Shown here in pieces: positions 5,817 to 26,800 of a stretch of DNA of 30,000 bases; the first letter of the stretch is position 1, and each line of letters opens with the position of its first letter. The translations under genes were made by a program, and so were the position numbers. The stretch comes from Pyrinomonadaceae bacterium (GTDB lineage: Bacteria; Acidobacteriota; Blastocatellia; Pyrinomonadales; Pyrinomonadaceae). Location: NCBI GenBank assembly GCA_036266295.1, contig DATANL010000550.1:1-30000 (forward strand), read 5' to 3'. The notes beneath the pieces were generated by a model. The model did no database searches. It saw only the letters and a program-made list of their open reading frames with translations, and was not told where the DNA came from.

Positions 5817-6791
<975 letters not shown>

Positions 6792-6803
6792 AAAATGTCT
6801 TCC

Positions 6804-6875: not shown

Positions 6876-6876
6876 G

Positions 6877-9680: not shown

Positions 9681-9715
9681 GCGAGTTAATTAATTATGCC
9701 TTGGATTGAGCGGGA

Positions 9716-9744: not shown

Positions 9745-9774
9745 CGACGCGTTTGTGAGATCGGCATATCAACG

Positions 9775-10008: not shown

Positions 10009-10023
10009 GGCGCGAAATATTTT

Positions 10024-10596: not shown

Positions 10597-10628
10597 CGGT
10601 TCTCCTTCTGGTCTGAACTATCATTAAT

Positions 10629-10646
10629 CAAAGGGCAAAGGTCAAA
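10629..10646. repeat. Short heptamer tandem repeat CAAAGGG-CAAAGGT-CAAA
   Basis: Direct reading; about 2.5 units of a 7-nt period. Confidence 0.45.
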
Positions 10647-10668
10647 CGAGGACGACGTGACTGTGTAT

Positions 10669-10738
10669 TTGACTGGAGCGCAACCGTCTCGGTTGCTCTT
10701 TAGAGAAATGCAAGCGAGGACGCTTGCGCTCCAGTCAA
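10669..10738. repeat. REP doublet, family C (GACTGGAGCGCAA..), copy 1
   Basis: GACTGGAGCGCAACCGTCTCGGTTGC (10671-10696), a 13-nt spacer, then GCAAGCGAGGACGCTTGCGCTCCAGTC (10710-10736). Both arms are identical to the copy at 26684-26752. Confidence 0.92.
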
Positions 10739-10790
10739 GTCGTTCGGGTCATGACACCAAATTAACCAACCGCCCGGGGCGAACACTCTT

Positions 10791-10820
10791 TTGACTTCGA
10801 ATCGTTGCCCGTGGTAATTT
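10791..10820 (+). promoter_or_regulatory. sigma70-type promoter TTGACT-N18-(TGn)TAATTT for the cobalamin riboswitch/btu operon
   Basis: TTGACT at 10791-10796 and extended -10 TG-G-TAATTT at 10812-10820, about 25 nt before riboswitch P1. Confidence 0.65.
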
Positions 10821-10844
10821 TCGCGTCGCTTCAAGTTCTTTCAA

Positions 10845-10973
10845 ACACGTTCTGGTGCCCCGCATAAAAGCGGGGAGAATAGGGAAGCGGGTGAGAATCC
10901 CGCGCGGTCGCGCCACTGTAAATGACTTCGTTGAGTGTCAGCGAAGCAAAGCCAGGAGACCTGCCCGAACGTT
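10845..10973 (+). ncRNA. Cobalamin (B12) riboswitch, compact form
   Basis: Conserved B12-element motifs GGTGCCC...AATAGGGAA, GGTGAGAATCC, GCCACTGTA, and the B12 box AAGCCAGGAGACCTGCC. P1 is ACGTTC/GAACGT. It lies directly upstream of an ABC transporter plus TonB receptor operon. Confidence 0.95.
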
Positions 10974-11039
10974 ACAGCAGCATTCGAACGCCCGCGAAAA
11001 GGTGTTCAGGCCGCACAGGGAATTTCCTTTCAAGGAACA

Positions 11040-11098
11040 ATCCCGTTGCCAGCCTGTCGTCTTCGCGCGGCAGATGAGGTGACGGGATTTTAATTTTT
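11040..11098 (+). terminator. Riboswitch expression-platform hairpin (intrinsic terminator and/or SD-sequestering hairpin)
   Basis: ATCCCGTTGCC (11040-11050) pairs with GGTGACGGGAT (11078-11088), with an inner CTGTCG/CGGCAG stem, followed by TTTAATTTTT. The 3' arm overlaps SD-like GAGGTGA (11076-11082). Confidence 0.75.
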
Positions 11099-11105
11099 AA
11101 GACAC

Positions 11106-11222
11106 AAATTTGGAGTGCGCCGGCAGAGTCCCGATTATATCGGGACGGCGACGGCGCTTTGGATCGCCGGTCCGCTATTCGTGCGAATCCAAAGCGGCGT
11201 CAAGCCGCCGCACTCCAAATTT
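11106..11222. repeat. REP doublet, family D (TTTGGAGTGCGGCGGCTTGACGCCGCTTT), copy 1
   Basis: 14-bp perfect terminal inverted repeat AAATTTGGAGTGCG/CGCACTCCAAATTT. The right arm ATCCAAAGCGGCGTCAAGCCGCCGCACTCCAAA matches the arms at 22972-23061. The left arm carries a nested hairpin. Confidence 0.9.
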
Positions 11223-12118
11223 GCGTGTTCGCAATTCTTTCGCTGCTGATTGTTACGTCGTGTTCGCGCATCCGAAATAACGAACCACAATCAAACGCGC
11301 AGACTCACGAAGTCACGGACGAAGCCGGCCGCCGCGTCCGTATCCCGCAGAAAATAGATCGCATCGTTTCGCTGGCGCCGAATCTCACTGAGATCGTTTA
11401 CGCAGTCGGCGCCGGCGAGCAGTTAGTCGGTGACACTGAATACTGCGACTATCCGCCGCAGGCAAAGAATGTCGCGAAGATCGGCGATACACTTCATCCC
11501 AGCATCGAGCGCATCATCGCGCTCAAGCCACAGATTGTTCTGGTCTCGACCGCTTCGCAACTCGAATCCTTCACCAAACAACTCGACGAACAGCACATCG
11601 CCGTCTACGTTACCGAGCCACAAAATTTGGATGATGCTTTGAAATCAATTCAGACTTTGGGAGATGCGCTCAATCATCACGACAAGGCCACGACATTGGT
11701 TGATGAATTGCGCCGTCGTAGCTCGGCGGTCGAAAACGCGGTCAAAGCTTCCCAGCCGGTTAAAGTTTTCTACCAGGTTTCGGGTGAGCCGCTTTACACG
11801 ATTGGTCGTGAGTCATATTTGACTGATCTCGTGCGCCGCGCCGGCGGCGTCTCAGTTACCGCGGACGTGCCGGGTGCGTTTCCACGTTTCAGCGATGAAG
11901 CCGCGCTGGCGTTGCGGCCGGACGCGGTCATTTTGTCGACTGGCGGCTCGATGGGCGAAGCGAACGCGACGATCGCGCCGTCGCTCAAGAACTCACCGGC
12001 GGTCCTGAATAATCGCGTCTACCGAATCAACGGCGATCTGCTTTCGCGTCCCGGCCCCCGGCTCGTAGACGGACTGGAAGCCATCGCGCGCGCGCTGCAT
12101 CCGGAGGCTTTCCGATGA
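11159..12118 (+). CDS. btuF: Cobalamin ABC transporter substrate-binding lipoprotein (start uncertain: 11087 ATT, 11159 TTG or 11225 GTG)
   Basis: RIVSLAPNLTEIVYAVG, CDYPP, PSIERIIALKP, RPGPRLVDGLE. Lipobox IVTS-C. First gene after the B12 riboswitch. Confidence 0.88.
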   Translation: MDRRSAIRANPKRRQAAALQICVFAILSLLIVTSCSRIRNNEPQSNAQTHEVTDEAGRRVRIPQKIDRIVSLAPNLTEIVYAVGAGEQLVGDTEYCDYPPQAKNVAKIGDTLHPSIERIIALKPQIVLVSTASQLESFTKQLDEQHIAVYVTEPQNLDDALKSIQTLGDALNHHDKATTLVDELRRRSSAVENAVKASQPVKVFYQVSGEPLYTIGRESYLTDLVRRAGGVSVTADVPGAFPRFSDEAALALRPDAVILSTGGSMGEANATIAPSLKNSPAVLNNRVYRINGDLLSRPGPRLVDGLEAIARALHPEAFR

Positions 12119-13131
12119 GGCGAGCACCACTCAGTACGTTCAAGCGGACGATCAGCATCTGCGGGTTGCTGTTATTGGCCCTGCTTGGAATCGTCACCGT
12201 TGCGTCACTGTTCGGCAGTGAGCGTTTGCCGCTACTAAATTCGCTCTGCGCCTTGACCGGCAGAAGCAATTGCGGTTTGTCTGCCGAGCAACAGGCCATC
12301 CTTTATGAAATTCGTTTGCCCCGCGTCTCACTGGCGGGAGTTGTGGGAATGTGTCTGGCGGCCGCCGGCGCGGGTTATCAGTCCCTGTTGCGGAATCCTT
12401 TGGCGGAACCTTATCTGCTCGGCGTTTCGAATGGCGCGGCGGTCGGCACGATGCTGGCGATGGTTTTCTTCGGCGCGCACGAATGGAGCCGGCCGTTGTT
12501 GGCTTTCGGCGGGGCGATCATCGCCAGTGCCGTCGTTTATCAACTCGCGCGAGGTCGCGCGGGCGCGACGCCGGATCGCCTGATTCTCGCCGGAGTGATC
12601 GTCACCACTTTTCTTTCTTCAGCGATTGTTTTTCTGACGGTCTTGATGGATGCCACGCGCATTCGCTCGTTCACGTTTTGGCTGCTGGGCGATTTGTCGG
12701 GCACCAGCGGCCGCTTGCTGACAATGGCTTTGATTGGTGTGGTAATTGGCGTCGTCGTGCTGATGTTCACTGCCCGTTCGCTGAATCTGATGATGCTGGG
12801 CGAGCGTGATGCTTTCGATCTGGGCGTCGAAGTCGGTCGCATTCGCTTGCTGGTGTTTCTGGCTGCGAGTGTCCTGGTCGGCTCGTCAGTCGCCGCGAGC
12901 GGATCGGTTGGTTACGTCGGTCTGGTGGTGCCGCATCTGGTCCGGCTTTCCTTTGGCAGCGACAATCGCATGGTCATTCCTGCTTCCGCGCTGGCGGGCG
13001 CAAGTTTCGTCATCGTGGCGGACACCCTGGCGCGCACGCTGATCGCGCCGCGCGAATTGCCGGTCGGCGCGATCACTGCCCTCATCGGCGCGCCGCTTTT
13101 CATTTACCTGCTGCGGAGAGGATCAAACTGA
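12115..13131 (+). CDS. btuC: Cobalamin ABC transporter permease (FecCD/BtuC family)
   Basis: IRLPRV, QSLLRNPLAEPYLLGVSNGA, FWLLGDL, GYVGLVVPH, ELPVGAITALIGAPLF. ATGA overlap with btuF. Confidence 0.9.
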   Translation: MRRAPLSTFKRTISICGLLLLALLGIVTVASLFGSERLPLLNSLCALTGRSNCGLSAEQQAILYEIRLPRVSLAGVVGMCLAAAGAGYQSLLRNPLAEPYLLGVSNGAAVGTMLAMVFFGAHEWSRPLLAFGGAIIASAVVYQLARGRAGATPDRLILAGVIVTTFLSSAIVFLTVLMDATRIRSFTFWLLGDLSGTSGRLLTMALIGVVIGVVVLMFTARSLNLMMLGERDAFDLGVEVGRIRLLVFLAASVLVGSSVAASGSVGYVGLVVPHLVRLSFGSDNRMVIPASALAGASFVIVADTLARTLIAPRELPVGAITALIGAPLFIYLLRRGSN

Positions 13132-13829
13132 TGGCGAAGAAAACTCTCCTGAGCTGGAGCAGCGGTAAGGACAGCGCCTGGACACTGCACGTGCTGCGAC
13201 AACGGTCCGATGTGGAGGTGGTAGGGCTGATGACCACGATGAAACAGGTCTATCAACGGATCGCGATTCATGCAGTGCGCCTGGAACTGCTGCAACTTCA
13301 AGCGCAGGCAGCCGGCCTGCCTTTGCACTTGATCGATCTTCCGAGTCCCTGCACGAACGCTCAATACGAGCAGGCGATGTCAGGTTTCATCGAGCAGTCG
13401 CAGCGTGACGGAATTGAATGCATCGCGTTCGGCGATCTCTTTCTCGCTGACATCAAGGCTTATCGAGAAGAGAAATTATCAGGGACGGGAATCGCGCCGC
13501 TGTTTCCCATCTGGCAGACGCCGACGGATGTATTGGCGAAGGAAATGATCTCGAGCGGATTGCGCGCGGTCGTGACCTGCGTCGATCCAAAATGTCTCCC
13601 GGCCGGCTTTGCCGGACGCGAGTTCAACGAACAATTGCTGTCGGACCTTCCCAGCGAAGTCGATCCGTGCGGCGAGCGCGGAGAATTTCACACCTTCGCG
13701 TTTGCCGGGCCGATGTTCAATCACCCGGTACCGGTTGCAGTCGGAGAGATTGTCGAGCGCGAAGGTTTTGTTTATGCGGACGTGTTGCCGTCGCCGGCAA
13801 ACAGTTACGAAACTGCGGGTGTCAACTAG
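13131..13829 (+). CDS. DUF71/COG2102 (Dph6/diphthine-ammonia-ligase-like) PP-loop ATPase
   Basis: PP-loop SWSSGKDS, FGDLFLADIKAYRE, FPIW, FAGREF, DPCGERGEFHTF. TGATG overlap with btuC. Confidence 0.92.
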   Translation: MAKKTLLSWSSGKDSAWTLHVLRQRSDVEVVGLMTTMKQVYQRIAIHAVRLELLQLQAQAAGLPLHLIDLPSPCTNAQYEQAMSGFIEQSQRDGIECIAFGDLFLADIKAYREEKLSGTGIAPLFPIWQTPTDVLAKEMISSGLRAVVTCVDPKCLPAGFAGREFNEQLLSDLPSEVDPCGERGEFHTFAFAGPMFNHPVPVAVGEIVEREGFVYADVLPSPANSYETAGVN

Positions 13830-13832
13830 AAG

Positions 13833-14615
13833 ATGCTGGAAGCGCGCCACATTACGATCAAGTTCGAACAGCGCACGGCAGTCGCCGATGTTTCGTTGCG
13901 CGCTGAACCTGGTCAGGTGATCGCAATCATCGGTCCGAATGGCGCGGGCAAGTCGACCTTGTTGCGAGCTTTGAACGGCAGCGTGGGCCTTACGAGTGGC
14001 GAAGTATTTCTGAACGAGAAACCGATTGCGACCTATGCGCGACGCGCGGTCGCGCGGCAGATCGCTGTAGTCGCGCAGGAGTCCGACCTCCGATTTCCCG
14101 TCACGGTGATGGAATTTGTTCTGGGTGGCCGGTACGCATGGGCCAATGCCTGGGGTTGGGAGACCGAACGAGATGTCGAAATCGCGCGCGACGTCTTGCG
14201 CCAGACCGAACTGGAAAACTTTGCGGACCGTTTGATGAACAAACTCTCCGGCGGCGAGCGTCAGCGCGTGATCATGGCGCGCACTTTGGTCACGGAAGCG
14301 AAGACGTTTCTGCTTGATGAACCGACAGCGAACCTCGATCTCGCGCACCAGGCCGCGATGCTCAAACTGGTGCGCAACTGTTGCGATCGCGATCACACGG
14401 CGGCGGTCGTCGTGACTCACGACGTGAATCTGGCGGCCGAGTTTGCCGATCGAGTGGTCCTTTTGAAAAGCGGTCGCGCTATCGCTGCGGGTCGTCCGCA
14501 TGAAGTGTTGACGACAAATTTAATGCACGAGCTTTTTGGTTTGCAGATCCTGGTTGATGCTCATCCGATTTCGGGCGCGCCAAGGATCACCCCCGTACAC
14601 ACAAGACAAGGATGA
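13833..14615 (+). CDS. btuD: Cobalamin ABC transporter ATP-binding protein (BtuD/FecE family)
   Basis: Walker A GPNGAGKST, signature LSGGERQR, Walker B LLDEPT, H-loop VTHD. Confidence 0.9.
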   Translation: MLEARHITIKFEQRTAVADVSLRAEPGQVIAIIGPNGAGKSTLLRALNGSVGLTSGEVFLNEKPIATYARRAVARQIAVVAQESDLRFPVTVMEFVLGGRYAWANAWGWETERDVEIARDVLRQTELENFADRLMNKLSGGERQRVIMARTLVTEAKTFLLDEPTANLDLAHQAAMLKLVRNCCDRDHTAAVVVTHDVNLAAEFADRVVLLKSGRAIAAGRPHEVLTTNLMHELFGLQILVDAHPISGAPRITPVHTRQG

Positions 14616-14638
14616 AAGATGAAGGAGGAAGGATGAAG
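14611..14638. repeat. Heptamer tandem array GATGAAA-GATGAAG-GAGGAAG-GATGAAG
   Basis: Four units at the btuD/TonB-receptor junction. The array contains the btuD stop, an AGGAGG SD and the receptor ATG. Confidence 0.7.
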
Positions 14639-16969
14639 ACTATCCTGATTAGTCTGGCAGTTTTGGTTTTGAGCACGAGCGCCCTGGCGCAGAGCGCCAC
14701 GGACATTCATGGGCGTGTGACTGACCAACGCAAAGCCAGTGTCGCCGGCGCTGAGGTGTCTCTGCGCGCGCGTTCCGGCGCAGAAGTTGTGGCGCTGACC
14801 GATGACAACGGCGAGTACAAATTCAAGGGGCTGGCCGCCAGCGATTACGTCATCGAGGTAAAAGCGAAAGGCTTTGCGGTATTCACTTCAAAGGCGCTGC
14901 ACCTTGAGCGTGGGCAATCAATGTCGAACGACATTGAACTCCTGGTGGAAGCCGTCAACGGCACCGTCGTAATCACGGCCAACGGCACGGCGCAAAGCAC
15001 CGACGAAATCTCAAAGGCGATCAGCGTCCTCAGCGATCAAACCATCGAAGCCAAGCACGAATTGACGCTGGCCGAGAGTGTGCGCGGTCTTCCGGGTGTG
15101 CGCATCCAACAACAAGGTTCCTACGGCACCGTGACGACGATTCGACTCAGAGGCCAGCGCATCTGGGACACCTCGGTGCTTTTGGATGGGGTGCGGGTTC
15201 GCGATTCGTCAGACATCAACGGCGCGGCCGTACCTTTCATCACGGACCTGTTGCCGGTTGATCTCGATCAGGTGGAACTCCTGCGCGGCTCTGGATCGTC
15301 GATCTATGGAACGAACGCGATTGGCGGCGTTATCAATCTGGTGCCGAAGACCGGCCAGGGCAAGCCGGCATTTGAATTTGGATTCGAGGGCGGCAGCCTG
15401 GCTTTATTTCAGGAAAGGATCAAAGGTTCCGGTGGCCTGGGCCAACGCGCGGGCTTCAGCTTTGGCCTCACGCGGCTCGACGTGCGACGCGGCGTCGATG
15501 GCAACGACGAATACAGCAACACCTCCGGGGCCGGCCGGTTTACTTTTGACGCAACACCGGCCATCAAAATCAGCGCGAATTTTTTTGGCACGACTTCGAA
15601 CGCGCGCGTGAACGACAGTCCGTTTCCTCTGCCGGCTGCGTTTACCGCCGGCGCTTTTCCGAAAGCGATCGCCGGCGTGACCTTTCATCCTGATTTCAAT
15701 AATCCCGATCAGGGCCGGCGCAATCGGATTTGGGTCGGCGCCGTCAAGCTGGCCCATGAAGTGAACGACGTGGTTTCATATACGATCGCTTATCAGCACG
15801 TCGGCACGCGGCGGCGAAACTATAACGGACCCAACTTTGATCCGCAGTTCGCGGCTTTGTATCCGTTCGGCGACTTTGCCTTCCAGAGCGTCAATAACGG
15901 CGGCACCGATACGTTTGATGCGCGCGCGAACCTTCGACTAGGCCGGCACAACCTGGCAACCGCCGGTTTTGAATACGAGCACGAATCGATCTTTCAGTCG
16001 TCGACGCCGGCGTTCAGCCCGGTTAACAACACGACGGATAAGCAAACCACCCTGGCGCTCTTTGGACAGGACCAGATTTTTCTGCTCGCGGATCGCCTGC
16101 AGATCTCGTTCGGTGTTCGTGGCCAGTCCTTTCGCATTCGCGCTGCCGACCGACCGGGTTTCCTGGCGGCGGTCACTCCAGACAATGCAATCACCGGCGA
16201 CGGCTCGATTGCCTATTTTATTCGCTCTACCAATACCAAGTTGCGCGCGCACGTGGGCAATGGATTCCGCGCGCCGTCGTTATTCGAGAGGTTCGGGCAG
16301 GGAACTTTCGCGTCGGCCGGCTTCGTCCGATTCGGCGATCCGACGCTAAAGGCCGAGCAATCAATCAGCGTCGACGGCGGCTTCGACCAGTCGGTTGCCA
16401 ATGACCGGGCCCGCTTTGGCGCCACCTATTTCTATACTCACTTGCAGCGGACGATTGGGTTCAAGTCCTTCGCCCTCGATCCGCTTGGCTTGGGACGTTT
16501 CAGTGGTTATCTCAATCTGCCGGGCGGCATCTCGCGCGGGGTCGAGACCTATGCTGAGTTTGTGCCGTGGCGCAACGGCAACGTGCGCACCTCTTACACC
16601 TATACCAATAGCGATCGGTTTACGAGCCCCGGCGGTCTGCAACGCGAATACGTGGTCTCGAAAAACATTTTTGGGTTTGATTTCAGTCAACGATACCGGG
16701 CAATCCAAATCAACTTCGACTTGAACTATACGGGCGATTACATCACGCAGACTTTTGAAAATAACTTTCCGTTCCGAGTCGTCGAGATGACTTTTCCCGG
16801 TTACACGAAGGCGGATCTGTTCGCCAGTTATGAGCGCAGTCTCTCAGACAGGGTTACGTTGGTTCTCTTCGGCGGCGCCAACAACCTGTTTGACGTGAAG
16901 TACTACGAGAGTGGATTTCTGGCGCCTGGGATTACGGCGCGCGGCGGCGTGAACGTGCGGATTCGGTAG
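14633..16969 (+). CDS. btuB: TonB-dependent receptor with N-terminal carboxypeptidase-regulatory-like domain, probable cobalamin receptor (778 aa)
   Basis: Signal MKTILISLAVLVLSTSALA-Q, TonB-box-like TVVITA, plug motifs LPGV, IRLRG, VLLDG, VELLRGSGSSIYGTNAIGGVINL, barrel motifs FRAPSL and NNLFD. The B12 assignment rests on riboswitch-operon context. Confidence 0.85.
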   Translation: MKTILISLAVLVLSTSALAQSATDIHGRVTDQRKASVAGAEVSLRARSGAEVVALTDDNGEYKFKGLAASDYVIEVKAKGFAVFTSKALHLERGQSMSNDIELLVEAVNGTVVITANGTAQSTDEISKAISVLSDQTIEAKHELTLAESVRGLPGVRIQQQGSYGTVTTIRLRGQRIWDTSVLLDGVRVRDSSDINGAAVPFITDLLPVDLDQVELLRGSGSSIYGTNAIGGVINLVPKTGQGKPAFEFGFEGGSLALFQERIKGSGGLGQRAGFSFGLTRLDVRRGVDGNDEYSNTSGAGRFTFDATPAIKISANFFGTTSNARVNDSPFPLPAAFTAGAFPKAIAGVTFHPDFNNPDQGRRNRIWVGAVKLAHEVNDVVSYTIAYQHVGTRRRNYNGPNFDPQFAALYPFGDFAFQSVNNGGTDTFDARANLRLGRHNLATAGFEYEHESIFQSSTPAFSPVNNTTDKQTTLALFGQDQIFLLADRLQISFGVRGQSFRIRAADRPGFLAAVTPDNAITGDGSIAYFIRSTNTKLRAHVGNGFRAPSLFERFGQGTFASAGFVRFGDPTLKAEQSISVDGGFDQSVANDRARFGATYFYTHLQRTIGFKSFALDPLGLGRFSGYLNLPGGISRGVETYAEFVPWRNGNVRTSYTYTNSDRFTSPGGLQREYVVSKNIFGFDFSQRYRAIQINFDLNYTGDYITQTFENNFPFRVVEMTFPGYTKADLFASYERSLSDRVTLVLFGGANNLFDVKYYESGFLAPGITARGGVNVRIR

Positions 16970-17018
16970 ATCAAGACAGGTTCCGCGATGGCAATCTCGC
17001 GAAACTGCCAGTCCTTTC

Positions 17019-17073
17019 TGTAGGGGCAGCTGATGACTGCCCGTGACGGGCAGGGACAAGCCCTGCCCCTACA
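17019..17073. repeat. REP doublet, family B, copy 2
   Basis: TGTAGGGGCAGCTGATGACTGCCCG plus the inverted arm CGGGCAGGGACAAGCCCTGCCCCTACA, whose reverse complement differs from the 6804 arm at one position. Lies between the convergent receptor and DUF4383 genes. Confidence 0.9.
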
Positions 17074-17081
17074 GTGGATGG

Positions 17082-17483
17082 TTAAGCGTCTCGACCGCCC
17101 AGCAAACCGCCGGCGAGGAATACAACTCCCAGCAGACAGTGCACGATGTGATCCATCTTACCGAGCTCCAGAGTTCCCGGAAGCACTGGCCAAAGTTTGC
17201 TGTCTTCCATGTGCATGCCGGCAATCGCCGAAGCGCCGGGATGTCCCATCACAAACCCGACGATTCCCAAGAGCAAATACACTGCGCCAAACACGAGACA
17301 GAAAGTGCGCGCGGCGCTTGGTGAGCCGGCGAATCCCAAATACAAGGCGATTGCGCCGGAGATTAGGTGAACGGCGTTGTGTGCGAGACTTAAGTGTGTG
17401 CCTAAGAATCCCGGCATCACAAATCCGGCGACGCCAACCAGCACAAACACCACGCCCAGAATCTTACATACCAGTTTAGCCAT
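17082..17483 (-). CDS. DUF4383 domain membrane protein
   Basis: LGVVFVLVGVAGF, HNAVHLISGAIAL, FGAVYLLLGIVGF, DHIVH. SD AGGAGG upstream. Confidence 0.85.
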   Translation of the reverse strand: MAKLVCKILGVVFVLVGVAGFVMPGFLGTHLSLAHNAVHLISGAIALYLGFAGSPSAARTFCLVFGAVYLLLGIVGFVMGHPGASAIAGMHMEDSKLWPVLPGTLELGKMDHIVHCLLGVVFLAGGLLGGRDA

Positions 17484-17558
17484 TGATCGTCTTCCTCCTG
17501 TGAACCGTTATGGGGCCATCAATACAACGATGCCGTCTCTACCAAAGGGGGGTTACCC

Positions 17559-17592
17559 TATTGTCGGCAAGACTTACTGTGAGCCGACAATA
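17559..17592. repeat. Perfect 10-bp inverted repeat TATTGTCGGC-N14-GCCGACAATA in a divergent intergenic region
   Basis: Direct reading of the sequence. Confidence 0.6.
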
Positions 17593-17713
17593 ATCAATGT
17601 TCTATATACGTTGTCCCTGGAACTGGTGGATTGTACCTCAACGAAACAAAATAATGACAACCTTTTTGGATTAAACGTGCTGATCGACGTTTTAATCTTC
17701 AAAGTACCGAGAG

Positions 17714-17719
17714 TATAAT
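17714..17719 (+). promoter_or_regulatory. -10 box TATAAT upstream of the VWA gene
   Basis: Consensus TATAAT 40 nt before ATG 17760, which has SD AAGGGGG. No clear -35. Confidence 0.5.
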
Positions 17720-17759
17720 GCGGTCCACAATCAAATATAGTTTCAAGGGGGTAGCGACC

Positions 17760-19463: not shown

Positions 19464-19480
19464 AACGTTCAGAGAATTGT

Positions 19481-19502
19481 TTGACAGAGTGCGGTCTGTC
19501 AA
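19481..19502. repeat. Perfect 8-bp inverted repeat TTGACAGA-N6-TCTGTCAA
   Basis: Direct reading; lies 17 nt after the VWA stop and 39 nt before the next ATG. Confidence 0.55.
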
Positions 19503-19541
19503 TCGCGAATTACAAAGAGTAGGAAAAGGAGAGGGTTTATC

Positions 19542-20555
19542 ATGTCTGCGCATACCTGGCCGCAAAACTTGAGACACGCGTTGGCCCAATTGTCGGCAAT
19601 CGTCACTCTTATTTTACTGATCGCGGTTGCAGCATCCGCTTACACACTCGTGTTGCGTGACGGCCGGCGCATCGAAATACCTGCAGAGTTCATTCTCACC
19701 AGGACTACTCTGACCTACGAGATATCGCCGGGATTCAATCAGACATTCGTGTTGTCTCTGGTCGACATTGCCGCGACCGAGCGCGCCAACGGCGAACCAC
19801 TGGGCGGATTTTTCAAGCATCGCCAGGATGCGGTCCGGCCGCCTGCGACCAACAACGAACCGGTGCGCCCGGCTGTGAAGACGCTGACAAATCTCGATCT
19901 TGATGCTGTGCGTCAAAGACGCGTCGAGAGCGAACAGGCTTACGAGTCGCGGCGCAAGCAACTGGGATTACCGACACTCGAGGAGTCGCGTCGCCGGCAG
20001 GATGCCGAGGCCACCGAGATGCGCCAGATGGCGCGGGCGAAAAATGAAGCCGACGCGCGCGATGAAGCCTTCTGGAAAGGACGCGCGCGCGAACTGCGCA
20101 ACGAGATTGCCATGGTCGATTCGCAGATTAGTTATCTGCGCGGCCGCGTCTATGACGCGAATCAGCAGGCGATGCAGAACCGCAGTTGGGTCACCGGCGT
20201 CTATCCGACCTGGCGCAACGGGCCCTGGCCCAATGGAAATTTCCCGAACGGCCGTTACCCGGACGCCAGACCAAACGGACCAATCATCGGCATGGGCCTG
20301 CCAAACATTTACGGATCGCCGAACGTCTACGGCTACCCCGGTCCTTACGGATATCCGGGCACGTATGGCTATCCGACTTACGGCTATCCGAACGGCTCAA
20401 TCAACAACAATCCGCCTTACAGCTCCGACCCGGTGGAACTAAACGGCCGTCTCGATGATTTGCTCGTCAGGCGGCAAGGCCTGGCGATGCAGTGGCGTCA
20501 GTTGGAAGACGACGCCCGCGACGCACGCATCCCGCAGGTTTGGCTGGAGCCGTAA
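19542..20555 (+). CDS. Secreted hypothetical protein, 337 aa (coiled coil plus Gly-Tyr-Pro repeats)
   Basis: SD AGGAGAGG. Hydrophobic N-terminal segment ending AASA-Y, coiled-coil core, low-complexity YGYP x4 segment. Confidence 0.85.
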   Translation: MSAHTWPQNLRHALAQLSAIVTLILLIAVAASAYTLVLRDGRRIEIPAEFILTRTTLTYEISPGFNQTFVLSLVDIAATERANGEPLGGFFKHRQDAVRPPATNNEPVRPAVKTLTNLDLDAVRQRRVESEQAYESRRKQLGLPTLEESRRRQDAEATEMRQMARAKNEADARDEAFWKGRARELRNEIAMVDSQISYLRGRVYDANQQAMQNRSWVTGVYPTWRNGPWPNGNFPNGRYPDARPNGPIIGMGLPNIYGSPNVYGYPGPYGYPGTYGYPTYGYPNGSINNNPPYSSDPVELNGRLDDLLVRRQGLAMQWRQLEDDARDARIPQVWLEP

Positions 20556-20557
20556 CG

Positions 20558-20657
20558 AGTTTCAAGTTTCGGTTTAAGGTTTCAAGTTGGCGCGGTCCGA
20601 TTGCATCGATGCGCGCGCTTGGACTAACCTGCAACTTGAAACATGAAACCTGAAACT
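20558..20657. repeat. Inverted pair of heptamer arrays (TTTCAAG-type / CTTGAAA-type)
   Basis: AGTT-TCAAGTT-TCGGTT-TAAGGTT-TCAAGTT (20558-20588) faces AACCTGC-AACTTGA-AACATGA-AACCTGA-AACT (20626-20657). Confidence 0.8.
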
Positions 20658-22130
20658 AATCCTGGCTGGGAAACCATCATCGGGCTGGAAGTTCACGCCC
20701 AATTAAGCACTGAATCGAAAATCTTCTGCGGCTGTTCGACGCGCTTCGGCTCTGAGCCGAACGCGAATACCTGTCCGGTGTGCCTGGGCCTGCCAGGTGC
20801 GCTGCCGGTTTTGAATCGACGCGTCGTCGAATTGGGCGCGCGCGCCGCACTGGCGCTGGGGCTGCACGTCAACGAGCGTTCGATCTTCGCGCGCAAGAAT
20901 TATTTCTACCCTGACCTGCCGAAGGGTTATCAAATCTCGCAATACGATCAGCCATTCTCGGCAAACGGCACGTTGGAAATAATGACTGCCGATCGCGACG
21001 AAGCCGGTCATGCGCACGAATGGAAGCCCATGACGATTGGGATCACGCGTCTGCATCTCGAGGAAGACGCGGGCAAGAACGTGCACGAAGGTTTGCCCGA
21101 CGTCGATCGGTATTCCTATATCGATTTGAATCGCGCCGGTGTGCCGCTGGCCGAGATCGTTACCGAGCCGGACTTCCGCTCGTCGTGGGAAGCCTACGAT
21201 TACGTCAATCACGTGCGCCGGGCGCTGCAATGGGTGGGCGCGTCGGACGCTGACATGGAGAAAGGAAATCTGCGCTGCGAAGCCAACGTCTCGGTGCGGC
21301 GCAAAGGCGACACGACCTTCGGCACGAAAGTCGAGCTGAAGAATCTCAACTCAGTTCGTTTCATGCAGAAAGCGATCGAGTTTGAAGTGGAACGCCACAT
21401 CAAGACTCTGGAAGAAGGCGGACGCCTGGTCCAGGAGACGCGTCTTTGGGATGAACGTCTGAATGAGACGCGCGCGATGCGTTCGAAAGAAGAGGCGCAT
21501 GACTATAGATATTTTCCGGAACCTGATTTGCCGCCGTTGACGGTCGACAAGACTTTCATTGATGAAGTGCGCGCTGGATTACCTGAATTGCCTGGCCCGC
21601 GCGCGAAGCGATTTACTGAGAGCTATGGTTTGTCTTACTCAGACGCTTCGCAATTAACCGGTGATCGTGCGCTGGCGGATTATTACGAGGCAACGGTCGC
21701 AGCCAGCGGCAACGCGCGAGCCGCAGCGAATTGGATACGCTCGGAGTTGCTCCGCGAGTTGGAGAACGCGGCCTTGACCGCCGACAAGTCGCCCGTAGCC
21801 GCAACTGAACTCGGCGCTTTGGTGCGCATGATCGACGAGGGCCAGATCAGCGGCAAGCAAGGCAAAGAGGTGCTGGTCGAGATGTTCGCCTCGGGCAAAT
21901 CAGCTGCCGCCATTGTTGCCGAAAAAGGATTGGTGCAGGTCAGCGACACCGGCGAAATCGATCGCGTGATCGACGAAATCATGGCTGCCAACCCGGACCA
22001 GTTGGCGCAGTACCGCGGCGGCAAAGAAGCGCTCTTCGGATTCTTCGTCGGCCAGGCGATGAAAGCTTCGAAGGGCAAAGCGAACCCCAAGATTGTGAAC
22101 GAGCGGCTGCGAGAAAAGTTGAAAGCGTGA
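20643..22130 (+). CDS. gatB: Aspartyl/glutamyl-tRNA amidotransferase subunit B
   Basis: IGLEVHAQL, CPVCLGLPGALP, RKNYFYPDLPKGYQISQ, HLEEDAGK, DLNRAGVPLAEIVTEPD, ELKNLNS, DYRYFPEPDL, GFFVGQAMK. Confidence 0.98.
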   Translation: MKPETNPGWETIIGLEVHAQLSTESKIFCGCSTRFGSEPNANTCPVCLGLPGALPVLNRRVVELGARAALALGLHVNERSIFARKNYFYPDLPKGYQISQYDQPFSANGTLEIMTADRDEAGHAHEWKPMTIGITRLHLEEDAGKNVHEGLPDVDRYSYIDLNRAGVPLAEIVTEPDFRSSWEAYDYVNHVRRALQWVGASDADMEKGNLRCEANVSVRRKGDTTFGTKVELKNLNSVRFMQKAIEFEVERHIKTLEEGGRLVQETRLWDERLNETRAMRSKEEAHDYRYFPEPDLPPLTVDKTFIDEVRAGLPELPGPRAKRFTESYGLSYSDASQLTGDRALADYYEATVAASGNARAAANWIRSELLRELENAALTADKSPVAATELGALVRMIDEGQISGKQGKEVLVEMFASGKSAAAIVAEKGLVQVSDTGEIDRVIDEIMAANPDQLAQYRGGKEALFGFFVGQAMKASKGKANPKIVNERLREKLKA

Positions 22131-22132
22131 AC

Positions 22133-22241
22133 GGAGCGCGGGCATCCCTGCCCGCATGAGCGCGAAGCGCGAACGTCGCCTATTTGATTAAGCACATCGA
22201 GCGTGCTGCGCAGGGTTTGCGGGCAGAGATGCCCGCGCTCC
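22133..22241. repeat. REP doublet, family E (GGAGCGCGGGCATCYCTGCCCGC)
   Basis: GGAGCGCGGGCATCCCTGCCCGC (22133-22155) and the inverted arm GCGGGCAGAGATGCCCGCGCTCC (22219-22241), with a 63-nt spacer. Same family as the RAYT flanks. Confidence 0.92.
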
Positions 22242-22248
22242 AATCAAG

Positions 22249-22968
22249 ATGGACCTCAAAAACAAAGTCGCCATCGTTACGGGTGGCACGAAAGGAATCG
22301 GGCGCGCAATCGCGGACGCGCTGTTGCGCGAAGGCGTATCAGTTTGTGTCTCGGCGCGGAACGTTGAGGTGATCGGGCAAACGTTGAAGCAGGCTGAGAA
22401 TCCGAGTGGTGGCCGCGAAATCATGTTTCCGTGCGACGTGCGCGAGTACGAGCACGTAAAAGGCCTGATCGGTTTCACCGTTAAAGAGTTTGGTGGGCTC
22501 GACATTCTCATCAACAACGCCGGCATCGGCATTTTCGAAACCGTCGAAAGAACTTCACCGGAAGATTTTCGCGCCGTACTGGAAACAAATCTCTTCGGTG
22601 TCTTTCATTGTTGCCACGCGGCAATTCCTGAAATGAAGCAGCGTGGCGGTGGTTACATCATCAACATCTCTTCGCTGGCCGGCGCGAATCCGCATCCGCG
22701 CATGGCGGCTTACAATGCTTCGAAGTTCGGTCTCAACGGTTTCAGCGAAGCGTTGATGCAGGAGGTGCGTCACGACAACATCAAGGTCAGTTACATCATG
22801 CCGGGTTCAGTGAATACGGAATTCGGCGGCGACGCGCCGAGCGGTGAGAAGAATTGGCAACTGACTCCTGATGACGTGGCGCGCGTGGTTGTCGATCTGC
22901 TTCATCACGACGATCGTTCACTGCCGAGTCGCGTAGAGATTCGTCCGAGTAAACCACCGAAGAAATAA
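22249..22968 (+). CDS. Short-chain dehydrogenase/reductase (SDR)
   Basis: TGGTKGIG, NNAG, catalytic S...YNASK. Confidence 0.93.
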   Translation: MDLKNKVAIVTGGTKGIGRAIADALLREGVSVCVSARNVEVIGQTLKQAENPSGGREIMFPCDVREYEHVKGLIGFTVKEFGGLDILINNAGIGIFETVERTSPEDFRAVLETNLFGVFHCCHAAIPEMKQRGGGYIINISSLAGANPHPRMAAYNASKFGLNGFSEALMQEVRHDNIKVSYIMPGSVNTEFGGDAPSGEKNWQLTPDDVARVVVDLLHHDDRSLPSRVEIRPSKPPKK

Positions 22969-22971
22969 AAA

Positions 22972-23061
22972 TTTGGAGTGTGGCGGCTTGACGCCGCTGT
23001 TTCAAATCTGCCATCGCGCCGGTGATGAAGTGGAAAGCGGCGTCAAGCCGCGCACTCCAAA
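22972..23061. repeat. REP doublet, family D, copy 2
   Basis: TTTGGAGTGTGGCGGCTTGACGCCGCT (22972-22998) and the inverted arm AAAGCGGCGTCAAGCCGCGCACTCCAAA (23034-23061). Confidence 0.9.
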
Positions 23062-23117
23062 AGTTGGCGTGTTAAGTGGTTATGAATCATGTCGCTGTGT
23101 CTATTTTAATGAACTAA

Positions 23118-23567
23118 ATGCGAGCCGTAGTTCAGCGCGTCACGCGCGCTTCAGTTGCAGTTGATGGAGAAGTGCTCGGCGAGATCGGAAACGGTCTCGT
23201 CGTTCTTGTAGGGATCGCGCGCGATGATACGAAGGTCGAAGCGGCTTACCTCGTCGACAAGATTTCGAACCTGCGCATCTTTGATGACGAAGACGGGAAG
23301 ATGAATCTCTCGGTCAAAGACGTAAACGGCGGGTTGCTGATTGTTTCCCAATTTACTTTGTACGGTGATGTCCGTCGGGGCCTGCGGCCGTCATGGATCG
23401 ATGCTGCGCCGCCGGAAGTCGCTGAGCCGCTCTATGATTTTTTTGTGCGTCAGGCGCGCTCAACCTTGGACGAAGTTGCGACAGGTAGATTTCAGGCGAT
23501 GATGCAGGTCGAGTTGATTAATGATGGACCAGTAACGATACTGCTCGACAGTAAGAAATTGTTTTAG
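23118..23567 (+). CDS. dtd: D-aminoacyl-tRNA deacylase
   Basis: [45 protein letters not shown]. Confidence 0.97.
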
Positions 23568-23604
23568 CGCACGCATTCTGCGGCGGGCCGCGTGCACTGC
23601 CCGC
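23566..23604. repeat. Decayed family-E REP
   Basis: AGCGCACGCATTCTGCG-GCGGGC...GCCCGC aligns with GGAGCGCCCGCATCCCTGCGGGC and overlaps the dtd stop codon. Confidence 0.5.
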
Positions 23605-23622
23605 ATTCAATAGGAGGATGGA

Positions 23623-24291
23623 TTGTTAATTAAAGCGAGACTCATTCTGATTTTAGGCGCCCTGGCTTTGCTGGCATTTGCCGGATGTGACAATAAACCA
23701 AATTCGAACTCGCCGGCCAACAAACCAGCGAACACCAACGCGCCCACCGGCGACGTCAAGACGGCGATCAAGCCCGCGCCCGACTCGCAAGTCGCGGTCA
23801 TTGAAACCGCCGATTACGATCGCATCGTGATCGAGCTTTACCCGAACGTCGCGCCCAAGCACGTCGAGCGCTTCAAGAAGTTGATTAGCGAGAAATTTTA
23901 TGATGGCACCGCGATCCATCGCATCGATCCCAGCCTGGGAATTATTCAAGGCGGCGACCCGGTTACGAAGACAGGTAACAAGTCGATGTGGGGCACCGGC
24001 AATTCTCCTTATCCCAATGTGCCGGCCGAGTTCAGCGACATTCCTTACGAGCGCGGCACGCTGGGCGCGGCGCGCACCAACGACATCAACGGCGCCAACT
24101 GCCAGTGGTTCATCACGCTCAAGCGCCAACCCGCGTTCGACAAGAAGTACACCGTCTTCGGCAAAGTGATCGAGGGCATCAAGAACGCGGAAGTGATCAT
24201 GATGGCGCCGACCGAAGAAGGCAGCACGCGGCCGGCTGAGAAAGTATTGATTAAGAGCGTGACGCTGCAGCCCCGATCTAATTTCCCGTAG
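23623..24291 (+). CDS. Cyclophilin-type peptidyl-prolyl cis-trans isomerase, lipoprotein
   Basis: SD AGGAGG with TTG start. Lipobox FAG-C. APKHVERF, FYDGTAIHR, IQGGDP, CQWFI, YTVFGKVIEG. Confidence 0.92.
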   Translation: MLIKARLILILGALALLAFAGCDNKPNSNSPANKPANTNAPTGDVKTAIKPAPDSQVAVIETADYDRIVIELYPNVAPKHVERFKKLISEKFYDGTAIHRIDPSLGIIQGGDPVTKTGNKSMWGTGNSPYPNVPAEFSDIPYERGTLGAARTNDINGANCQWFITLKRQPAFDKKYTVFGKVIEGIKNAEVIMMAPTEEGSTRPAEKVLIKSVTLQPRSNFP

Positions 24292-24336
24292 GAGCGCCCG
24301 CATCCCTGCGGGCGGGTCGCGCGCATCCCTGCGCGC
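24291..24336 (+). repeat. Left REP doublet flanking RAYT (family E)
   Basis: GGAGC-GCCCGCA-TCCC-TGCGGGC followed by GGGTC-GCGCGCA-TCCC-TGCGCGC. Confidence 0.92.
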
Positions 24337-24344
24337 ATGTCTTT

Positions 24345-24947
24345 ATGAAAGCGCAACTTCCAGGATCAGAGTCGCGCTTAGGTTGGCACGGCCGCGGCTA
24401 CCTCCCTCACTTCGAGGGTGGCGAGCTCGCCCAATTCATCACTTTCAGATTGCATGACTCACTGCCGCGAGATGTAGTCATTCGCTGGAAAGAAGAGTTG
24501 AAGCTTCAGCCGAGCCTTGAAGTGCAATCCTTGATGCGAAAACGCGTTGAGGTCTACCTCGATCAAGGACACGGAGACTGCTATTTGCGAAATCCTCATA
24601 TTGCTAACGTGGTTCAGCGCGCCCTCCTCTTTCATGATCAAATAAAATACCGGCTGAGCGCGTGGGTAATCATGCCGAATCACGTCCATTTGCTTTGCAC
24701 ACCATTGGCAGGACACTCTCTTGCTGACATCATGCACTCGATTAAATCGTTCACCGCGAGTGAGGCGAACAAGATGCTGAACCGGAAAGGAAGATTTTGG
24801 CAGAAAGAGTATTTTGATCGATACATTCGAAATTCGAGACAGTTCGGCCGGGCTGTGACTTATCTTGAGAACAATCCAGTGAAGGGAAATCTGTGTTATA
24901 AGGCGGAAGATTGGCCGTTTAGTAGCGCGGCGTTGCGAACGAAATAA
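24345..24947 (+). mobile_element. rayT: REP-associated tyrosine transposase (RAYT / TnpA-REP, Y1 HUH family), 200 aa
   Basis: RGYLPH, FITFRL, HUH motif in WVIMPNHVHLL, IKSFTA, FWQKEYFDRYIRN, catalytic Tyr in YLENNP, WPFSSA. REP hairpins on both sides. Confidence 0.93.
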
Positions 24948-24950
24948 GAA

Positions 24951-24995
24951 GCAGGCAGGGATGCCTGCGCACCGCCCGCAGGATGCGGGCGCTCC
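24951..24995 (-). repeat. Right REP doublet flanking RAYT (family E), inverted relative to the left
   Basis: The reverse complement reads GGAGC-GCCCGCA-TCC-TGCGGGC then GGTGC-GCAGGCA-TCCC-TGCCTGC. Confidence 0.92.
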
Positions 24996-25003
24996 GACGG
25001 CGC

Positions 25004-26005
25004 TTAAACCTTCGGAAATAAAATCGGCAGCGCAACTTCGGCGGTGAACATGCAGCGGGCGTTGTGACCGCACAGGGGCACGACGACGACTTGATGCTGC
25101 GCGTTGTATTTGGCTTTAACGTAAGCCGCAAAGGCCTGGCCGCGGGCGAGTCGCGTCGGTCCCTGGGCCATCGCCGGACACGACGAATCGAATCCCGCCA
25201 GCGGTAACACATCCAACTCGCCGAGTAGATAAGTAACCGGCCGCGACGCCAGTTGCTTCTTCAATTGCTCGTCGGGAATCTTTGCGGTGTAGCCGGTGCG
25301 GCTTTTCAAACCATAGGGCCAGGTGTCGTAAGTCGTGCAGTTGCGCGCGTCGCCGAACGGACGCAACTCGTTGGTGGCGCCGCCCGGACGTTCAGCATCG
25401 AGATAGGAATAGCTCGAGGGATTGGAAACTACGTAAGTAATCGGAATCGAGATCGATTCGTGCACCTGGTTGCCCATCTCATAGCGCGTCACGAATTGTC
25501 CGCCGGCCGAATGACCTGAGATGACAATGGCTTTGAGGTTCGGAAAGTTTGCTTTATTTGCCAGCGCCCGCACGATCGCGTCCATGAAATCATAAGACGT
25601 CAGCTTTGGATTATTCGTGGCCACGCCGCCTGATCGCCAACTGTCGCCGCCGCAAGGCCAATTGACTTCTTTCGGCCCCAGCGCGTCACGGCAGCCGGTG
25701 CCGTTGTTTGAAGCCATGCGCGGTGAGATCACGATCGTGTCGTTGAAGGCGTTGGCGAGAAATGCCGCCGCCAGGCTGGTGCGAAAATAATTATCCGCGT
25801 CGCGACCCTGACCGTGCACCACGATGAGAGCGCGCACAATCTTTTCGTTCTTCTGGTCCAAAGGGTACGTGCTGTAAACGAGTGAGCGAGATTCACCGGC
25901 GAGACTTACCCAACGGGTGCATTCATCGGTGGCTTTGATGCAAGGTTCCGCGGCGTACGCGGGCATGAAGACGAATAAGGCAGTCAGCAGAAGCAGGATG
26001 CGCAT
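25004..26005 (-). CDS. Secreted alpha/beta hydrolase, 333 aa
   Basis: Signal MRILLLLTALFVFMPAYA-A, HGQG oxyanion region, nucleophile GHSAG, C-terminal catalytic His candidate (CGHN). Start moved from 26092 to 26005. Confidence 0.88.
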   Translation of the reverse strand: MRILLLLTALFVFMPAYAAEPCIKATDECTRWVSLAGESRSLVYSTYPLDQKNEKIVRALIVVHGQGRDADNYFRTSLAAAFLANAFNDTIVISPRMASNNGTGCRDALGPKEVNWPCGGDSWRSGGVATNNPKLTSYDFMDAIVRALANKANFPNLKAIVISGHSAGGQFVTRYEMGNQVHESISIPITYVVSNPSSYSYLDAERPGGATNELRPFGDARNCTTYDTWPYGLKSRTGYTAKIPDEQLKKQLASRPVTYLLGELDVLPLAGFDSSCPAMAQGPTRLARGQAFAAYVKAKYNAQHQVVVVPLCGHNARCMFTAEVALPILFPKV

Positions 26006-26117
26006 AATGCGCGGGAGAATATCGTGAGAGGAAAAATCGCGCAAGCAAGTAGCGCAGATTATTATCTGCGTTTGTCGGATTGAACAACGCAAATAACAAT
26101 CTGTGTTACCTGCTTAG

Positions 26118-26513
26118 CTAGATCGTATCGTCGCGGGTCTTCGATTGTTGTTCCAGTTCAAATCGATCGCGATCGCGCCGTTCTATCTTATCGAGAAAAT
26201 CCAGTTCTTCGTTGTCCTCGAAATTGACGCCGATGGCGTGCGCGTTCTCTTCGACCATCGATTGATCGGGCGTCGGACTGTCACCTCCGACTGCTTCGGA
26301 ACCTGAGCTGTTTACATCTTCCCAGTCCGCGTCGAGATCGCCGCCCGCATCTGCCGGAGAGGCCGAGCGATTTCGCAGACGCTGCGCGAGCAGATCAGGA
26401 TCCTTGGGCGCGTGCGCGATCTCTTCTTCCATAAACTCTTCGATTTCCGGATCGGGCACAAATTCGGGATCGTTACTCAGGTAGTTGAATGATTCAGGTT
26501 GTTTCTTCGGCAT
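26118..26513 (-). CDS. DUF6335 family acidic protein
   Basis: GGDLDADWE, EAVGGDSPTPDQ, IERRDRDRFEL resemble the DUF6335 family. SD AGAGGAG upstream. Confidence 0.72.
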   Translation of the reverse strand: MPKKQPESFNYLSNDPEFVPDPEIEEFMEEEIAHAPKDPDLLAQRLRNRSASPADAGGDLDADWEDVNSSGSEAVGGDSPTPDQSMVEENAHAIGVNFEDNEELDFLDKIERRDRDRFELEQQSKTRDDTI

Positions 26514-26612
26514 GAATGCGGCTCCTCTGTAATGGAGTTCGTTCGCTCACGCGTTGGAGGGCATCGCGCTCGCATCAATTCAAATCAGAGGGGAATCGTT
26601 TATCTGACTGCG

Positions 26613-26641
26613 ACTATAACAAATGAACAGATCGCCAGCAA
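26613..26641 (-). promoter_or_regulatory. Promoter TTGCTG-N17-TATAGT (with extended TG) for the DUF6335 gene
   Basis: On the minus strand, TTGCTG (26641-26636), a 17-nt spacer ending in TGn, and TATAGT (26618-26613). Confidence 0.55.
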
Positions 26642-26683
26642 CAGAGGTGCGACGCGACCAGTTCACCTGCTTGATTTGACACA

Positions 26684-26755
26684 GACTGGAGCGCAACCGT
26701 CTCGGTTGCTACTCTCGAGACACACGCAAGCGAGGACGCTTGCGCTCCAGTCAAG
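26684..26755. repeat. REP doublet, family C, copy 2
   Basis: Arms identical to 10671-10736, with a different 16-nt spacer. Lies between the divergent DUF6335 and acnA promoters. Confidence 0.92.
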
Positions 26756-26771
26756 CGACAAGTTCACGTGC

Positions 26772-26800
26772 TTGACGATTGCAAATCGCGCTCTTAAACT
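26772..26800 (+). promoter_or_regulatory. sigma70-type promoter TTGACG-N17-TAAACT for acnA
   Basis: TTGACG at 26772-26777, a 17-nt spacer, TAAACT at 26795-26800. Confidence 0.7.

Follow-up and report, generated by a model that had tools for sequence, protein, structure and literature searches.

GGAGC-tagged REP hairpins with compensated stems and their RAYT transposases in a Pyrinomonadaceae genome

Introduction

Do hairpins that share an unpaired tag and a loop and differ in the stem belong to one family of repetitive extragenic palindromes (REPs), and are they served by one REP-associated tyrosine transposase (RAYT)? The question is raised by a stretch of 30,000 nt (the window), which is the whole of contig DATANL010000550.1 from a Pyrinomonadaceae metagenome-assembled genome (MAG; Acidobacteriota, Blastocatellia; assembly GCA_036266295.1, 4.48 Mb in 833 contigs, 87% complete). 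It contains a RAYT gene between two tandem hairpin doublets, and pairs of inverted hairpins (REPINs) elsewhere; most of these hairpins are preceded by the tag GGAGC. A preliminary description had proposed that two of their stem families, C (GCAACCG and GCAAGCG) and E (such as GCCCGCA), are one structure-recognised substrate class of the local RAYT "or paralogs". Our preferred answer, to which we assign a probability of roughly 0.7, is that these REPs, mostly organised as REPINs, are one superfamily that co-diversified with one RAYT clade, the subfamilies being paralogous REP-RAYT systems. To our knowledge, REP/RAYT biology has been worked out almost wholly in Proteobacteria with GTAG-tagged REPs.

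Fixed tag and loop, compensated stem

The class stands out in an unbiased list of the perfect hairpins of the genome that have a 7-bp stem and a 3-5 nt loop: GGAGC is their commonest 5' pentamer. Such a stem follows 151 of 5781 GGAGC sites; seven control pentamers of the same composition have 2-6 such stems each among 5408-15923 occurrences. When sites were anchored on the tag and a TCC[CT] loop, with pairing left unfiltered, the 169 hits were distributed bimodally, with 95 perfect stems, 15 with six of seven pairs and the rest with 0-5 pairs. The 151 perfect copies comprise 14 different stems, and about 35 more copies have one mismatch. Within this perfect-copy set, G1, C2 and C6 are present throughout, R7 in 150 copies and a TCY or TCYY loop in 134 (89%). 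Stem pairs 1, 2 and 6 do not vary; pairs 3-5 do, with full compensation. Enrichment, unfiltered pairing scan and stem census bear out the fixed tag and TCC-type loop with compensated central stem pairs that had been proposed from the window. With inner tags included, the class reaches the high copy number of REPs, 254 oriented hairpins in the genome, and 46 hairpin pairs have the head-to-head arrangement of REPINs.

This largest hairpin class of the genome is split and ranked low by k-mer detection. Its first 21-mer ranks about 26th with 20 copies, despite more than 250 hairpins, as had been predicted for k-mer-based REP finders. The commonest 21-mers (up to 62 copies) come from a repeat containing GATCCGGTCGCTACCGCTCGCGGTTCTGAC, which is unrelated to the GGAGC class.

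A covariance model (CM) was trained on RAYT-flanking hairpins only, all but four of them from other genomes. It recovered the ten window hairpins, eight with 27-36 bits and the two inner hairpins of the RAYT cassette with 19-20 bits; the next-best match in the window has 16 bits. Inspection of the sequence likewise placed all ten where the preliminary description had listed them, each preceded by GGAGC except for the two inner RAYT hairpins, whose tags are GGGTC and GGTGC. The CM search of the genome scored 150 of 5502 candidates and yielded at least 123 matches; it is no census, and the counts given here come from regular-expression and pairing scans.

RAYT homologues and their flanking hairpins

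The window RAYT matches PF01797 with 40 bits (cut-off 23) and the NCBIfam equivalog NF047646, 'REP-associated tyrosine transposase', with 91.3 bits (cut-off 80). It aligns to E. coli TnpAREP (4ER8; E 3.8e-9), with NHVH and YLENNP in register with HMH and YIYINP. The locus is syntenic: at many loci of other genomes a cyclophilin gene lies on one side and an alpha/beta-hydrolase gene on the other. The cyclophilin gene was matched in 18 locus entries, with the hydrolase alongside in most (some genomes were entered twice). Across species, the gene is inherited vertically, with one copy per lineage at a fixed locus, as in the RAYT family and unlike IS200 copies. The assembly yielded only two RAYTs of this clade, one in the window and one on contig C821, which are 57% identical; the latter is flanked by GCGGGCA-type REPs. 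An IS200/IS605 insertion sequence was considered and rejected, given these two paralogues only, the syntenic gene and hairpins dispersed hundreds of times without it. No tnpB adjoins the window RAYT.

The comparison drew on RAYT homologues, with their flanks, in 40 relatives and in species-representative genomes that were scanned for them. The closest homologues occur in Pyrinomonadaceae, Blastocatellia and Acidobacteriota MAGs. Inverted flanking hairpins with outward tags are found at the window cassette, at the C821 locus and at most of about 120 homologue loci in other genomes. Nearly all of them have one design in common, in which a GG-N-N-C tag precedes a GC-NNN-C-R stem; the loop is TCC, TCT or TCCY, in some cases CCCT or GCC. 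This design recurs in MAGs labelled Chlorobium, Heliomicrobium, Binatia, Alphaproteobacteria, Anaerolineales and others. Tags in other clades are GGAAC, GGACC and GGTAC, and inner hairpins carry GGTTC, GGGTC or GGTGC. The canonical unpaired GT[AG]G foot was not encountered in the class, whose tag is GGAGC with unconserved preceding bases. In the window cassette GTAG does stand just 5' of GGAGC (GTAGGAGC), but it was discarded as a tag since the bases before GGAG are unconserved in other copies and species.

An alignment of 113 distinct RAYT-flanking hairpins was pre-selected for perfect pairing and is therefore 100% paired by construction; its use lies in which pairs vary. Pairs 1, 2 and 6 are invariant or nearly so, and pairs 3-5 each occur in 3-4 Watson-Crick types. 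Orthologous doublets at syntenic RAYT loci of other species differ by compensated changes only; the left inner stem, for instance, is GCGCGCA, GCATGCA, GCACGCA or GCAGGCA.

A tree of 92 RAYT proteins was built by a quick method with Shimodaira-Hasegawa-like approximate likelihood ratio (SH-aLRT) supports. The window RAYT belongs to a clade (support 100) with GCCCGCA outer hairpins and the double-hairpin layout. RAYTs flanked by GCAAGCG/GCAACCG form a separate clade (support 96) and are 54-58% identical to the window RAYT. Those flanked by GCGGACG form another (support 98), and the C821 RAYT with its GCGGGCA flanks pairs with the homologue L033 (support 98). Stem labels require 35 changes on this tree, compared with 57.1 +/- 1.8 for shuffled labels, and stem type tracks the RAYT clade. 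Because each subfamily flanks its own RAYT clade in relatives, the subfamilies are best read as paralogous systems and not as one substrate pool. The window RAYT is the putative cognate of type E, the C821 RAYT that of the GCGGGCA type.

The preliminary description is thus right in part of its central claim: families C and E are homologous, tied to RAYTs and built on covarying stems. They do not appear to be a single substrate class of the local RAYT, as stems track the clade. Its hedge "or paralogs" turns out to be the better wording, since family C flanks a separate RAYT clade in relatives. It had named a different RAYT lineage for family C, together with a lack of intermediate stems, as a finding that would speak against it; the separate lineage was indeed seen, and intermediate stems do exist across the RAYT clade.

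Subfamilies and their mobility

At least four subfamilies are present in the genome: C, GCGGACG, GCGGGCA and E. In family C, the tag is extended to GACT-GGAGC, and GCAACCG with loop TCT is paired with GCAAGCG with loop TCCT in a REPIN of about 70 nt. With a mean identity of 79%, these REPINs are the most homogeneous subfamily of the genome. In the GCGGACG subfamily the tag is extended to GCTG-GGAGC or GGAAC. REPINs of the GCGGGCA subfamily measure about 100 nt and share a conserved inner spacer, which in the window copy at 22133 starts ATGAGCGCGAAGCGCGAAC; 16 REPINs similar to this copy occur in the genome. Type E consists of tandem double hairpins, GGAGC-S1 followed by GGTTC-like-S2, often as an inverted pair of doublets that spans about 97 nt and has four hairpins. 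It is hypervariable, with 37 different S1/S2 combinations in 63 tandem units. When S2 was anchored on tag and linker without a filter for pairing, 175 of 189 central cells were Watson-Crick, compared with 101.6 +/- 5.1 for shuffled arms, and 13 different central triplets were counted. An avoidance of identical stems in tandem units (0 of 63 versus roughly 3 expected, a rough estimate) was considered and dropped as too weak.

In computed folds, the two-hairpin REPINs of family C and the GCGGGCA type form a long bulged hairpin. As single-stranded DNA (ssDNA), the family C REPIN at 10671 gives a single such hairpin with -29.9 kcal/mol (z -9.0). In each of the two doublets beside the RAYT, the hairpins fold separately and locally (-22 kcal/mol for the left doublet). 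From these two doublets, the four-hairpin units of type E are expected to fold locally as well, not as a single long hairpin.

Family C was gained or lost recently, because each of the two window copies is absent from contigs that match its flanks at 95-97% identity. A contig from another metagenome, 97% identical in the flanks, is without 10663-10770 and joins 10662 to 10771 with two extra letters. In contigs from two other soil/rhizosphere metagenomes (95-97% identical in the flanks) 26651 is joined to 26753, and the REPIN at 26684 is missing; the 101 nt absent there comprise the REPIN and a 32-nt diverged duplicate of the right flank. The same REPIN is absent at the orthologous site of the relative G002, though G002 has 204 family C tag-plus-stem matches elsewhere. 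At the site between gatB and a short-chain dehydrogenase/reductase (SDR) gene, the GCGGGCA REPIN is present here and in G015; other palindromic repeats occupy the site in G004, G006, G008 and G013, and no recognisable REP was found there in G010 and G014. Joints with a short side below 30 nt (e.g. 24328>24951) look like repeat cross-matches and were left unused.

Target duplication is not expected for Y1/HUH elements. In the 35-nt flanks of 51 REPINs, direct repeats are no longer than in mismatched controls except for 15 nt at 26661/26762. An approximately 32-nt diverged duplicate (26652-26683 and 26753-26784), whose 15-nt core reads AGTTCACCTGCTTGA in one copy and AGTTCACGTGCTTGA in the other, brackets the 26684 REPIN. 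Strains without this REPIN are also without one repeat copy, and no such duplication was seen around the other REPINs examined.

A RAYT of the family C clade was not found in the 87%-complete assembly with its 833 contigs, nor was a cognate of the GCGGACG subfamily. The site of the C-clade RAYT in four relatives corresponds to contig C756 here, which is contiguous across it, without RAYT and without GGAGC hairpin. Two further loci with the cognate RAYT of family C (L026, L063) were tried as guides and proved uninformative; they lie in other contexts, and their neighbours are on different contigs here. The relatives G012, G015, G016 and G022, which do contain a C-clade RAYT, have 6-82 family C matches.

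Discussion

By analogy with assayed group 3 TnpAREP proteins, the RAYT would bind the folded single-stranded REP and read one or two bases of the loop, the uninterrupted stem and, for cleavage, the tag. In those assays, cleavage depended on the tag; a particular loop base and a perfect stem were also required, and complementary stem swaps were largely tolerated (Corneloup et al., 2021; PMC8266576). The features fixed here, i.e. the tag, a loop base, the terminal stem pairs and an unbroken helix, correspond to those that count in the group 3 enzymes. We propose that only perfectly paired copies would remain substrates and that stems would therefore drift by compensated changes.

Several observations speak against co-diversified paralogous systems. 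The features that the RAYT would read are deduced from conservation only. Stem labels and RAYT clades are co-inherited, so the contrast of 35 with 57.1 changes overstates their independence. Within the genus sample, G001, G002, G010, G020 and G021 hold 44-204 family C matches each, with the C-clade RAYT undetected. Nor is the pairing of REPs with their cognate RAYT exclusive: G018, which is 99% complete, has only a window-clade RAYT, and GCGGGCA or GCGGCCA stems predominate among the GGAGC matches listed for it (137 in all). Family C is both homogeneous and polymorphic between close strains, and neither fits a decaying relic. Finally, the MAG is fragmented and incomplete, so that the absence of a RAYT from it is unproven.

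Some of these points are better accommodated if recognition by the resident RAYTs extends no further than the tag, the loop and the geometry of the hairpin, so that all GGAGC stems are one substrate class mobilised in trans. We regard this as the strongest competitor, yet as unlikely. Tag, loop and fixed stem positions are indeed common to all subfamilies and to the whole RAYT clade, and complementary exchanges in the stem are tolerated by the group 3 enzymes that have been assayed (PMC8266576). Such a pool would also account for the abundance of family C in several genomes with no C-clade RAYT detected, for the homogeneity of its copies, for the polymorphism of both window copies versus near-identical strains, and for the many stems of type E units although the conserved RAYT flanks are GCCCGCA. 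Against it, stem type tracks the RAYT clade on the tree, and each subfamily has private features (GACT- and GCTG-extended tags, conserved spacers, two- versus four-hairpin layout), which suggest separate lineages. A cognate RAYT may, moreover, be hidden by MAG incompleteness, and loss of the RAYT or switching of REPs has been put forward in the literature for the same pattern (Nunvar et al., 2013; PMC3686654).

A more specific and distinctly doubtful idea is that RAYTs of this clade read only the GG-N-N-C tag, a C as second loop base and the unbroken 7-bp helix, with the central three pairs as a free 'address'. If so, any resident clade RAYT would mobilise every subfamily, which would explain a family C that is recently polymorphic in this genome and abundant in several relatives although no cognate RAYT was detected. 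Type E would then keep unlike stems for local folding without cross-pairing, with fast compensated turnover of stems as a consequence.

The compensation could also be mainly mutational, through self-templated repair, template switching or conversion between copies, with selection by the RAYT in a lesser role. We think this improbable as the principal cause. Some 80% of copies pair perfectly although 14-24 stem types occur, and 37 stem combinations in 63 type E units look as if modules had been swapped. Direct evidence for such a process is lacking, and the conservation of the unpaired tag and loop still needs selection by a reader protein. A mutational contribution is compatible with co-diversification of REPs and RAYTs and does not replace it.

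That the hairpins are host regulatory stem-loops, terminator-like or mRNA-stabilising and kept paired by host selection with an incidental link to the RAYT, is very improbable: all five window sites of the class do lie between open reading frames near gene ends, and REPs of other bacteria have such secondary roles (PMC3733652, PMC2817692), but no T-run follows the hairpins at any of the listed window sites, and the strand-specific unpaired tag and loop, the occurrence in MAGs labelled as several phyla, the inverted placement around the RAYT, presence or absence between near-identical strains and the different REP types at one intergenic site across species would all be left unexplained.

Relation to known REP-RAYT systems

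Co-diversification of REPs with their RAYTs has precedents. The group 3 REPtrons of Stenotrophomonas maltophilia and Marinomonas resemble the present elements in their short perfect hairpin, its loop of 3-4 nt and the unpaired tag 5' of it, and in the inverted REPs around the RAYT; their assayed needs match the conservation found here (Corneloup et al., 2021; PMC8266576). They differ in their GTAG tag and 8-bp stem, compared with GGAGC (GG-N-N-C) and 7 bp in Acidobacteriota. The motifs of the window RAYT (NHVH, WQ, YLENNP; 200 aa) are closer to TnpAY1 subclass 2.4 than to 2.5 of Quentin et al. (2018). Subclass 2.4, equivalent to Bertels group 4, has NH[IFV]H, WQ and YIxNNP in about 194 aa (PMC6006769); the likeness is a motif match only. 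The REPs of this subclass are long with a GT[AG]G foot or have a 'double foot', and those found here are short (7 bp) and have a GGAGC foot.

The GTAG/CGTC REP superfamilies are likewise large sets of tagged palindromes, present as singles and as head-to-head or tail-to-tail dimers and associated with tyrosine transposases (Di Nocera et al., 2013; PMC3733652). Tandem double hairpins that form four-hairpin units, as in type E, are not described there, the word GGAG is absent from the text and none of its listed tag variants is GGAG. In the text of Nunvar 2010, Acidobacteria, GGAG and 'tetranucleotide' are absent. In Pseudomonas fluorescens and Stenotrophomonas, different REP classes were found at orthologous syntenic RAYTs ('orthoswitch'), REP abundance followed the cognate RAYT mostly but not always, and RAYT duplication went with REP diversification (Nunvar et al., 2013; PMC3686654). 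The present system belongs to another phylum and has another tag, its divergence is limited to three central pairs, and type E is hypervariable within one genome. REPINs of Pseudomonas fluorescens SBW25 and E. coli are the same inverted doublets folding into a long hairpin, and their RAYT too is inherited vertically at a constant locus, with one copy in each lineage (Bertels and Rainey, 2011, PMC3116915; Bertels et al., 2017, PMC5581495). The present system differs in the four hairpins of type E, whose stems are unlike, and in the coexistence of four REP subfamilies with two or more RAYTs of the same clade.

Much of the pattern is thus already on record for Proteobacteria. Subfamilies that differ by alternative, complementary residues in the stem are known within tagged REP superfamilies (PMC3733652); orthologous RAYTs can be flanked by different REP classes, and REPs may be over-represented where a cognate RAYT is missing (PMC3686654). 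TnpAREP proteins have also been described as co-evolving with their own REPs (PMC8266576). The elements described here are a well-documented case of a known kind and involve no new mechanism. New are the GG-N-N-C tag instead of GT[AG]G, the breadth of the clade in Acidobacteriota and beyond, the limitation of variation to three central pairs and the four-hairpin hypervariable type E element. The RAYT clade is large; its centre lies in soil Acidobacteriota, and MAGs labelled as other phyla contain homologues. Its REPs amount to a natural mutagenesis series in which tag G1, G2 and C5, stem pairs 1, 2 and 6 and loop base 2 are fixed. They offer a convenient system for the way in which HUH enzymes read folded ssDNA, and cross-mobilisation of REPs between paralogous RAYTs becomes testable.

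Features of the window and other repeats

Table 1. Elements of the GGAGC class in the window, with CM scores of their two hairpins.
Element	Position	Strand	Description	CM (bits)	Basis
Family C REPIN	10671-10736	both	inverted REPs	27.3 and 33.3	sequence, CM, fold, strain comparison
Left REP of 10671 REPIN		+	GACT; GGAGC 10675-10679; stem GCAACCG 10680-10686; loop TCT; stem 10690-10696		
Right REP of 10671 REPIN		-	stem GCAAGCG and loop TCCT 10710-10727; GCTCC 10728-10732; AGTC 10733-10736		
GCGGGCA-type REPIN	22133-22241		between gatB stop and SDR gene start	35.5 and 33.8	sequence, CM
Left REP of 22133 REPIN	22133-22155	+	loop TCCC		
Right REP of 22133 REPIN	22219-22241	-	loop TCTC		
RAYT cassette	24291-24995		tandem hairpin doublet on each side, mirrored, GGAGC tags outermost		
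Left tandem REP doublet	24291-24336	+	outer GGAGC-GCCCGCA-TCCC 24291-24313; inner GGGTC-GCGCGCA-TCCC 24314-24336		
RAYT gene, 200 aa	24345-24947	+	Y1 HUH transposase; motifs NHVH, WQ, YLENNP		
Right tandem REP doublet	24951-24995	-	outer GGAGC-GCCCGCA-TCC 24974-24995; inner GGTGC-GCAGGCA-TCCC 24951-24973	32.8 and 20.3	
Second family C REPIN	26684-26752	both	GACT-GGAGC-GCAACCG-TCT on +; GCAAGCG-TCCT on -	27.4 and 32.8	sequence, CM, strain comparison

Unitigs of the likely source metagenome (run X1) stop at or inside REPs, at window positions 22133, 10696, 11193 and 26650. Because source-sample unitigs end in this way at several window REPs, REPs probably contribute to the breaking of MAG assemblies in this group, here into 833 contigs.

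Of the 13 Y1_Tnp matches in the genome, most that are intact have their own type of hairpin alongside; several REP families therefore exist in parallel. Five IS200-like Y1 genes on contigs C407, C220, C653, C201 and C696, two of them with internal stops, lie amid clusters of different hairpins (ATAGC-tagged and others), which suggests further REP-RAYT-like systems of another subclass.

Other repeats of the window belong to different families. A REP family with tag GTAGG, stem GGCAGGG and loop CTYGT is present at 6803-6832 and 17045-17074; it has 65 perfect tag-and-loop-anchored copies in the genome, and at the end of contig C496 its hairpin flanks another Y1 transposase. At 5728-5802 lies a 27-nt inverted repeat of the GGGAGAGGGCTGGGGTGAGGGC type; this palindrome is an element of its own and has no relation to the GGAGC class. 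Copies of another REP family, with tag GGAGT and loop CTTG, are found at 11092-11236 and 22969-22998. A related TTAGA-tagged family, also with a CTTG loop, has 29 different stems in 80 perfect copies; a stem that varies with compensation while tag and loop stay constant is therefore a general feature of this genome.

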